A stretch of 64,000 nucleotides of DNA from a virus (Duplodnaviria; Heunggongvirae; Uroviricota; Caudoviricetes). A program made the translations under genes and the position numbers. Location: the IMG/VR virus record IMGVR_UViG_2851976983_000001, positions 32,001-96,000 of that record. One strand, 5' to 3'. Positions 19,710 through 19,868 of the stretch are shown in pieces. Numbering within the stretch: position 1 is the stretch's first letter; each line of letters begins with the position of its first letter. The notes under the pieces are model-generated. The model had not been told where the DNA came from, did no database searches, and saw only the letters and a program-made list of their open reading frames with translations.

Positions 19710-19791
19710 CACAGCGCTGAACGGTTTGGCGACATTTGCGGAGTCTTTCCGTTCGGACGGTGGTGGCGAACTCCAAACCGTTCAGCGCTGT
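19710..19791 (-). repeat. 20 bp perfect inverted repeat (CACAGCGCTGAACGGTTTGG) enclosing a 42 nt structured loop
   Basis: Arms at 19710-19729 and 19772-19791; begins 2 nt after the tRNA 3' CCA on the minus strand. Confidence 0.6.
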
Positions 19792-19793
19792 GT

Positions 19794-19868
19794 TGGCGAT
19801 GGTGGGTGGACTCGAACCACCGACCAGTTGATTAACAGTCAACCGCTCTACCACTGAGCTACACCATC
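19794..19868 (-). tRNA. tRNA-Asn (anticodon GUU), 75 nt, CCA encoded
   Basis: Hand-folded cloverleaf: 7 bp acceptor GATGGTG/CACCATC, D arm GCTC-AGTGGTA-GAGC, anticodon arm GTTGA-CTGTTAA-TCAAC, T arm GGTGG-TTCGAGT-CCACC, discriminator G. Confidence 0.85.

Follow-up and report, generated by a model that had tools for sequence, protein, structure and literature searches.

The tRNA cluster of phage T4 is co-transcribed with the stable RNAs known as species 1 and 2, and the polycistronic transcripts of the early region of phage T7 carry hairpins that are processed by RNase III. In Escherichia coli, the glyW-cysT-leuZ operon gives rise to 3'ETS-leuZ (ETS, external transcribed spacer), an Hfq-bound small RNA (sRNA) sponge that is released by RNase E. 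The 3' modules of Hfq-binding sRNAs are laid out as a U-rich stretch, a GC-rich hairpin and a U-tail. Phages and prophages further carry two kinds of large structured RNA, GOLLD and ROOL (PMC12286853). The present work concerns a transfer RNA (tRNA) gene, tRNA-Asn, together with the 20-bp hairpin and the trailer that follow it, in a 64,000-nt stretch of a tailed-phage record (IMG/VR record IMGVR_UViG_2851976983_000001, positions 32,001 to 96,000). This stretch is referred to as the window, and coordinates on its minus strand denote the RNA in tRNA sense. Comparison of homologues indicates that the hairpin, situated in the 3' trailer of a tRNA operon on a phage-plasmid, is a genuine and conserved RNA element with strand specificity.

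Two E. coli plasmids match the locus region at 100% identity, pHCM2 of Salmonella Typhi CT18 matches it at 97.6%, and Salmonella phage SSU5 does so at 98% along part of the region. On account of these identities, the window is assigned to a phage-plasmid of the SSU5/pHCM2 type. Such elements are common in clinical Salmonella Typhi, Klebsiella, Enterobacter and E. coli, and their biology is poorly understood. The tRNA lies within a 1.57-kb stretch (19047-20616) in which pHCM2 has no annotated coding sequence (CDS).

The tRNA gene and its trailer

A first-pass annotation, made from the sequence without database searches, had described the only tRNA of the window as a clean cloverleaf with anticodon GUU and an encoded CCA. 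ARAGORN agrees, finding exactly one tRNA in the 64 kb, a tRNA-Asn with anticodon GTT, and the Rfam tRNA model RF00005 scores it at 76.2 bits, well above the gathering score of 29. The CCA is encoded at 19796-19794, so that the end of the gene reads ...CCAUC-G-CCA in tRNA sense. The identity elements of E. coli asparaginyl-tRNA synthetase are the anticodon GUU and the discriminator G73; the tRNA of the window has both, in addition to its encoded CCA. Identity to the chromosomal tRNA-Asn of E. coli is 79.3% and confined to positions 6-62, which bears out the earlier impression that the gene is specific to the element. The tRNA-Asn is thus genuine and no copy of the host gene. It is also already known, having been annotated in phage SSU5 and in pJN2-26 (as tRNA-Asn in both), as well as in RefSeq plasmids.

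The CCA is separated from the following stem by one nucleotide (A, 19793) and not by two, as had first been counted. The perfect 20-bp inverted repeat noticed at this place is indeed present, with two 20-nt arms that are 100% complementary, and the loop between them measures 43 nt instead of the 42 nt first given. The chance of finding a perfect 20-bp inverted repeat within 150 nt anywhere in 64 kb is ~1e-5 (64000 x 150 x 4^-20), and the 281-nt stretch folds with z = -5.4 relative to dinucleotide shuffles. As an intrinsic terminator the long stem is ruled out, because it is followed by GAUAGAC and no U-run. The hairpin at 19616-19635 does qualify; it had been named as the terminator beforehand, and the minus-strand scan recovered it together with its T-run. 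Its stem comes 74 nt after the long hairpin and is kept in 39/39 sequences of the trailer alignment, which comprises 39 unique versions from plasmids and IMG/VR contigs. Hairpin, trailer and terminator together form a module of ~185 nt. The trailer thereby sits between the 3' end of the last tRNA and an intrinsic terminator, the position required of a tRNA-trailer sRNA of the 3'ETS type.

The loop had further been described as internally structured, a claim that the comparison of homologues does not support. Loop length ranges from 32 to 44 nt, identity between the two main clades falls to 0.40, and the structure is not conserved; within the loop, only the motif AAGACUCCGC is kept. A search of 19600-20625 for a partner of this motif found none.

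Selection on the hairpin as RNA

Applied to the 39 homologues, RNAalifold recovers the full stem. The paired fraction of alignment cells is 99%, vs 22-56% with slid partners, and the covariation score was reached by 0/500 shuffles. Two compensatory pairs were found in the stem, one alternating between U-A and C-G, with three C.A intermediates, and the other between G-C and A-U. A covariance model built solely from trailer hairpins (R1) scores the hairpin of the window at 94.2 bits on the tRNA-sense strand. With respect to strand, the consensus energy of the trailer alignment is -51.5 kcal/mol in tRNA sense vs -46.9 kcal/mol for the reverse complement, a modest preference. For the alignment of the leader upstream of the tRNA, the preference is strong (-128.9 vs -89.0 kcal/mol). 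The asymmetry of the single sequence is modest (-250 vs -245 kcal/mol), and the alignments were needed to show it.

A further indication of strand comes from pair 17, which is U.G in 38/39 variants. The stem is therefore fully perfect, as first described, only in the version shared by the window and pHCM2, and the description fails for the other variants, which carry the wobble. Because the opposite strand would present A.C at this position, the U.G pair points to an RNA of tRNA sense and argues against a symmetric DNA site.

The same observations bear on the possibility that the inverted repeat acts as DNA, i.e., as a cruciform, as the site of a dimeric protein, or as a boundary at which the neighboring cargo hotspot recombines. 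Conservation of the arms extends from their pairing to their sequence, and each holds the near-palindrome CAGCGCTG, yet they are spaced 32-44 nt apart, which is unfit for a dimer site of fixed geometry. Likewise, the module adjoins hypervariable cargo (AbiH, IS5, a TEM transposon or hypothetical genes) and homology to SSU5 breaks off inside the loop, whereas the homology of the family as a whole stops past the terminator and not at the hairpin. The T.G / A.C mismatch of the 38 variants would be tolerated only as U.G in the tRNA-sense RNA. In the leader hairpins, one-sided changes amount to 497 G.U vs 7 A.C cells, a partly circular count, and RNAalifold favors one strand. A role at the level of DNA is thus very unlikely.

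Distribution and conservation of the module

The segment 19600-19800 was matched in 631 plasmids of PLSDB at 75-100% identity. Among complete E. coli genomes, the module is present in 242/5,426, at 243 places on plasmids and 0 on chromosomes. It is single-copy, with one place per replicon. Phage records carry the module only if they are SSU5-like, the remaining matches being to the common terminator alone. The sole match among species-representative genomes, Buttiauxella gaviniae, belongs to the window's own clade and adds no diversity. A dispersed palindromic repeat (REP/BIME, ERIC or MITE) is ruled out, since the hairpin is single-copy, restricted to plasmids and accompanied by only one, weaker relative in the window.

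In its relatives, the element carries a variable cluster of Tyr, Thr, Asn and Ser(UGA) genes, with up to four tRNAs. The cluster ends with Asn in the window's clade and with Ser in the clades of Klebsiella and E. coli, and in either case the hairpin starts 1-2 nt past the CCA of that last tRNA. Among tRNA-adjacent versions, 31/35 have 0 stem mismatches. Two lineages have a hairpin that is not next to a tRNA, and their stems carry 3 and 2 mismatches.

The window's clade lacks tRNA-Ser, and its trailer is joined straight to tRNA-Asn. In BLAST searches, the 3' end of the tRNA-Asn (window 19794-19819) cross-matches the 3' end of the family's tRNA-Ser(UGA) in loci L008, L011-L016 and L018. The absence of tRNA-Ser is consistent with a deletion via recombination between the two tRNA 3' ends. 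An integration scar (attL/attR) was considered as well and rejected, as the partial copy of a tRNA 3' end beside the hairpin in relatives proved to be the second tRNA, Ser(UGA).

Beyond the U-run of the terminator, homology across the family ends at once and gives way to unrelated cargo. The trailer segment ACGGCAGACGUUCUU is invariant across clades whose loops cannot be aligned, and the trailer is more conserved than a mere spacer would need. SSU5 departs from this pattern. The tRNA and the 5' arm are retained there, together with about 22 nt of the loop, and the homology break falls inside the loop (L002 3001-3045 vs window 19754). Past the break, two large genes annotated as putative porphyrin biosynthetic proteins replace the 3' arm, the trailer and the cargo. 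SSU5 is called 'virulent' in a passage of PMC5427195.

These patterns make it scarcely probable that the hairpin is a neutral relic, i.e., a duplicated module or decayed sequence that is kept because the family is young. On that explanation, one could account for the few covariation events, for the resemblance of the long hairpins to paralogues and for SSU5, which does without the hairpin and suffers no obvious harm. However, the loop has diverged down to 0.40 identity with many indels while the arms remain at ~0.9 and paired, compensatory changes restore pairing, and mismatches are absent from most tRNA-adjacent variants, as counted above.

The structured leader and its related hairpins

Upstream of the tRNA lies a CDS-free leader of 750 nt (19869-20620, minus strand), which is conserved family-wide and highly structured (folding z = -8.4). 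The leader is present in 770 plasmids of PLSDB, including those of Yersinia, and retains about 77% identity in distant clades; 61 Yersinia plasmids have the leader and lack the trailer hairpin. No Rfam family matched it. For an alignment of 31 unique leader sequences, RNAalifold predicts 11 hairpins, in which 99.3% of cells are paired vs 33-48% when the partners are slid. Seven compensatory pairs were counted, mostly in helices 7, 8 and 11. Small open reading frames (ORFs) in the leader were rejected, since no frame is consistently open and loop indels are not multiples of three; a small ORF in the trailer hairpin was rejected on account of loop indels of the same kind.

Two of the leader helices resemble the trailer hairpin. 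The stem base of helix 11 matches the base of the trailer hairpin (CACARCGYUGAR), and no exact copy of the 12-nt motif CACARCGYTGAR exists in the 64 kb outside the four arms of these two hairpins. Helix 11 also shows 2 compensatory pairs and several G.U variants. Helix 8, for which 25 consensus pairs are 99.5% paired with many G-C/G.U alternations, is cross-matched by R1 at 25 bits (E about 0.002), as the sole and weaker relative that the model finds in the window. The matches indicate that helices 8 and 11 are related to the trailer hairpin, which gives three related long hairpins at the locus.

A putative sigma-70 promoter sits right after the stop codon of the upstream gene, and in the Klebsiella clade a -10 element of TATGAT occupies the same columns. 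Both observations weakly suggest where transcription of the non-coding unit might start. Closer to the tRNA, a 32-nt block (19920-19951) remains about 94% identical even in clades with diverged flanks and could serve the tRNA cluster as promoter or processing signal. Taken together, the locus can be read as one putative transcription unit of non-coding RNA, about 970 nt long, with three related long hairpins as its punctuation. This conserved unit of ~1 kb is annotated in no database. It probably encodes several RNAs that act on host translation or RNA metabolism, namely the non-host tRNA-Asn, a trailer RNA and the tmRNA-like tag element described below. The first-pass annotation, centered on the tRNA and the hairpin behind it, overlooked this unit along with its three related hairpins and its tmRNA-like start.

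The extent of the structured region raises the possibility that leader, tRNA and trailer make up one large, ornate non-coding RNA, in a context like that of GOLLD and ROOL, and that the trailer hairpin is one of its structural modules, serving in folding or assembly and not in cleavage. The locus offers about 1 kb without a conserved ORF, at least 11 conserved helices, a strongly negative folding score and mutually related long hairpins, and GOLLD and ROOL are 'often near tRNA islands', with tRNAs sometimes embedded in GOLLD (PMC12286853). The predicted architecture nevertheless differs: hairpins with variable loops follow one another independently, neither multi-helix junctions nor covarying long-range pairs are present, and the sole long-range helix is weak. 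The 5' part, moreover, stands alone as a unit of ~180 nt in other phages, which suggests separable modules, and the GOLLD and ROOL models found no match in 19050-20620 either at the gathering score or at E<=10. A single ornate RNA is therefore improbable. More generally, Rfam scans at gathering and at permissive thresholds identified no known RNA family, returning only noise resembling microRNA precursors on the hairpins and sub-threshold tmRNA matches.

Table 1. Features of the non-coding locus in window coordinates. Identities are those between the two main clades.
Feature	Position	Strand	Evidence	Inter-clade identity
tRNA-Asn (GUU), discriminator G, encoded CCA	19794..19868	-	ARAGORN; Rfam RF00005, 76.2 bits	
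Trailer hairpin: 5' arm 19792-19773, 43-nt loop 19772-19730, 3' arm 19729-19710	19710..19792	-	Inverted-repeat search	Arms 0.88-0.90; loop 0.40
Conserved, mostly single-stranded trailer, GAUAGAC..ACGGCAGACGUUCUUAAC.., internal U6 at 19658-19653	19636..19709	-	Alignment, inter-clade identity	First part 0.85; second part 0.72
Intrinsic terminator: 8-bp GC-rich stem, UUCG loop, U6 tail	19610..19635	-	Terminator scan	0.89
DNA past terminator				0.26
32-nt block ~50 nt upstream of tRNA, with small hairpin GCACU-AACGUAA-AGUGC	19920..19951	-	BLAST of leader against all loci	
Leader helix 11: 19-bp stem, 77-nt loop, stem base CACAACGUUGAG/CUCAACGUUGUG	20117..20231	-	Inverted-repeat search	
Leader helix 8: 22-nt core at 95% complementarity, 43 nt between arms	20302..20390	-	Inverted-repeat search	
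Leader helices 7 (20391-20424, 4 compensatory pairs), 9 (20256-20293) and 10 (20233-20251)	Span 20233..20424, enclosing helix 8	-	RNAalifold and pair counts	
tmRNA-like element, tag frame 20537 to 20505	20410..20585	-	Sub-threshold Rfam tmRNA matches; conserved frame	
Putative sigma-70 promoter TTTACT-17-TAAGAT, 8/12 matches	20585..20613	-	Read from sequence	

Proposed role of the hairpin and trailer

With moderate confidence, the 20-bp stem is proposed to be the 5' domain of the conserved ~185-nt 3' trailer, i.e., of an external transcribed spacer, and to work as a processing and stability element of the tRNA operon. A stable helix 1-2 nt past the CCA would block 3' exonucleolytic trimming, and an endonucleolytic cut in the stem or the linker would thus seem necessary. 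Such a cut might be made within the stem by RNase III or in the 1-2-nt linker after the CCA by RNase E. It would free the last tRNA for 3' trimming, and the same cut would set where a trailer RNA with an Hfq-type module at its 3' end begins. The two related upstream hairpins probably would punctuate the same precursor in a like manner, dividing it into tmRNA-like RNA, spacer hairpins, tRNA and trailer.

The uninterrupted 20-bp stem has the size of about two helical turns (about 20-22 bp) expected of an RNase III substrate; in relatives, it consists of 19 Watson-Crick pairs and one U.G. RNase III accommodates ~22 bp, and RNase III sites have been reported near tRNAs in vivo (PMC6212723). Because the stem length fits this footprint, RNase III is a candidate nuclease, and its cleavage of the stem is plausible. 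At its 3' end, the trailer has a U6 stretch, a GC-rich hairpin and a U6 tail. That stem, trailer and terminator are strongly conserved agrees with the earlier suggestion that the hairpin could be a processing signal or a co-transcribed small RNA. A literature search found no transcriptome or sRNA study of the locus. Whereas the tRNA is not new, the hairpin and trailer have so far been unannotated, though they are of a known kind of element, and the hairpin offers a simple, testable handle on how the products of the unit are made.

Several points weigh against this interpretation. Covariation is confined to two stem positions and essentially traces back to one split between two clades, which makes for thin phylogenetic support. 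Strong conservation extends to the sequence of the arms, and recognition by a protein could explain this equally well. That stem integrity goes with tRNA adjacency is suggestive and involves two lineages only, and one tRNA-adjacent variant (L049) likewise has 2 mismatches. As SSU5 has the tRNA without the 3' arm and trailer, the hairpin is not needed for a usable tRNA, nor is the module needed for lytic growth. No sigma-70 promoter passes a minus-strand scan at a threshold of 9/12. Finally, a scan of the window for duplexes with the conserved trailer and loop gave no convincing target, the best non-self duplexes lying ~4 standard deviations from background and having long interior loops.

The trailer may instead be chiefly a regulatory sRNA, either a sponge of the 3'ETS type or a base-pairing RNA, in which the stem is a protective 5' domain and contains no cleavage site. 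This alternative overlaps with the processing element proposed above and differs from it mainly in emphasis. Its strongest argument is the segment ACGGCAGACGUUCUU, which is invariant though the loops are unalignable. The internal U6, the GC-rich terminator hairpin and the U6 tail resemble an enterobacterial Hfq-binding module, and the location directly 3' of the last tRNA mirrors that of E. coli 3'ETS-leuZ. Nevertheless, a primarily regulatory role is rather doubtful: the duplex scan, which was limited to the 64-kb window and left host targets unsearched, yielded no target, SSU5 manages without the trailer, and no Rfam family matches it.

A tmRNA-like tag element at the start of the leader

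The structured leader, above all its start, is a more interesting lead than the hairpin. The element at 20410-20585 is the most invariant part of the leader and is kept in all SSU5-like phage-plasmids sampled. Read in RNA sense, it contains AAAUAUAACU-GCA AAC GAA GAU ACG UAC CUG GCA GUA GCC UAA, which specifies ANEDTYLAVA* without a start codon, after the manner of the tag frame of transfer-messenger RNA (tmRNA). The frame and its in-frame stop are kept in 51 loci with 15 DNA variants. The resulting tags include ANDNQYLAVA, ANEEVYLAVA, ANEEMYLAVA, ANDNTFLAVA and ANDNVFLAVA, among others, and of the variable sites two fall at first, three at second and six at third codon positions. The region of the resume codon aligns almost perfectly with the Rfam model tmRNA_permuted (29.8 bits vs a threshold of 47), and its context, AUAAxU-GCAAACGA, matches the tmRNA consensus. 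The stop codon of the tag lies in a hairpin loop. Pairing between this loop and downstream sequence covaries (CG/UA and CG/GC/AU) in 11 sequences, over 3 bp only and in an alignment that is not structure-aware, which suggests a pseudoknot-like arrangement.

The element extends well beyond the SSU5-like family, matching 494 phage records at about 76-84% identity. Carriers unrelated to SSU5 include T1-like Klebsiella siphoviruses, the lambdoid phage HK633, Ackermannviridae and Felix O1-like myoviruses. Its setting varies: it often lies inside tRNA arrays, as in Felix O1 and Michonne, in the gap between P_R'/qut and holin in HK633, and in long CDS-free gaps in the other loci. The copies in ZX4, T765 and HK633, a set with one T1-like, one lambdoid and one Ackermannviridae phage, share 90-94% identity over 171-185 nt. 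In ZX4, a TTGACA-17-TAGATT promoter precedes the element at a place equivalent to that of the putative promoter of the window.

A tRNA-like domain (TLD), comprising an acceptor stem with G3.U70, a T-arm and a 3' CCA, was not found; ARAGORN at default settings was negative in the window and in six phage loci, and the element contains no T-loop motif. The Rfam tmRNA models score 12-30 bits, below their gathering scores of 47-84, and the alignment of their 'acceptor piece' borrows the neighboring tRNA. The relaxed mode of ARAGORN recovered the tag among many false positives, and its domain calls were not used. Genome announcements for Felix O1 and Moogle report an 'ssrA' located with ARAGORN (PMC4319497, PMC4392139). 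In an exhaustive survey of viral and plasmid ssrA genes, the tmRNA curators recorded none beyond those of mycobacteriophages, Bacillus phage G and DS6A, the last as 'TLD only' (PMC4131195). Because this survey omits such an element, a tag-bearing relative of tmRNA without a detectable TLD appears to be essentially undescribed.

A broader model of the locus may be offered tentatively and with low confidence. The 1.0-1.5 kb of CDS-free DNA would be a phage 'translation RNA island', in which one promoter would drive a TLD-less tmRNA relative with a degradation-type tag (AN[DE]xx[YF]LAVA), the tRNAs and a trailer sRNA, and the three paralogous long hairpins would provide nuclease punctuation. The tag-only RNA would then represent a new class of phage RNA that is exchanged horizontally among T1-like, lambdoid, Felix O1-like, Ackermannviridae and SSU5-like elements. 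It might interfere with or re-route host trans-translation and thereby mirror the TLD-only inhibitor of DS6A. If functional, the tmRNA-like element would be of wider importance, being common to hundreds of therapeutic and model enterobacterial phages.

Cargo hotspot and other features of the window

The DNA between phoH and the terminator of the trailer (window about 16760-19610) is a cargo hotspot. It holds three ORFs without a significant Pfam match in the window, and AbiH, IS5, a blaTEM-210 transposon or other hypothetical genes in relatives (loci L004-L018). A 2025 preprint reports SSU5-like elements with blaTEM Tn3-like insertions 'near tRNA loci'. As the non-coding unit adjoins this hotspot (AbiH, IS5, blaTEM), its conserved flank bears on the gain of defense and resistance genes. 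A site resembling integron attC was also considered for the hairpin and rejected, as the core motifs are unfit by inspection and no integrase is found among the nearby genes looked at.

On the plus strand, a promoter-like site (19309-19337, TTGACG-17-TAAGAT) is followed ~70 nt later by a strong terminator with a 13-bp stem and T-run (19408-19437). The whole feature (19309-19445) could delimit a small transcript of ~100 nt, and in Rfam it has only weak leader-like or ctRNA-like matches. Two further RNA elements lie elsewhere on the plus strand of the window. The 5' untranslated region (UTR) of the cspA thermoregulator is matched full-length at 5035-5453 (185.7 bits), so that the phage-plasmid carries a gene of the cold-shock type with its RNA thermosensor. 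At 45954-46070 there is an ALIL pseudoknot (121.8 bits); since IS3-family transposases use it as their frameshift signal, this copy of the element evidently contains an insertion sequence.

Comparison with known systems

As in the T4 cluster and the T7 early region, phage-borne tRNA genes here stand beside an additional structured RNA that is not a tRNA, and long hairpins lie between the modules of one putative precursor. The likeness is one of layout, as no sequence or Rfam relationship to either system was found. The present locus has one tRNA (up to four in relatives), it belongs to a temperate phage-plasmid, and cleavage of its hairpins is only proposed. A closer parallel in position is 3'ETS-leuZ. 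In both, a conserved RNA segment fills the space between the final CCA of the tRNA genes and an intrinsic terminator, and has a U-rich stretch, a hairpin and a U-tail at its 3' end. However, the trailer described here is about three times longer, opens with a 20-bp stem and has no sequence similarity to 3'ETS-leuZ.

With GOLLD and ROOL, the locus shares the character of a large, conserved, CDS-free structured RNA beside or around phage tRNA genes. It differs in that no covariance model matches, in that a row of hairpins takes the place of an ornate multi-junction fold, and in its host range, which is Enterobacteriaceae. With respect to tmRNA (ssrA), the start of the leader likewise has a tag frame without a start codon, here AN[DE]xx[YF]LAVA*, a resume context that matches the consensus, a stop codon in a hairpin loop and a possible pseudoknot-like pairing, and differs in having no detectable TLD. 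The truncated tmRNA of mycobacteriophage DS6A is 'TLD only' (PMC4131195); the element of the window is its converse, a tag without a TLD.

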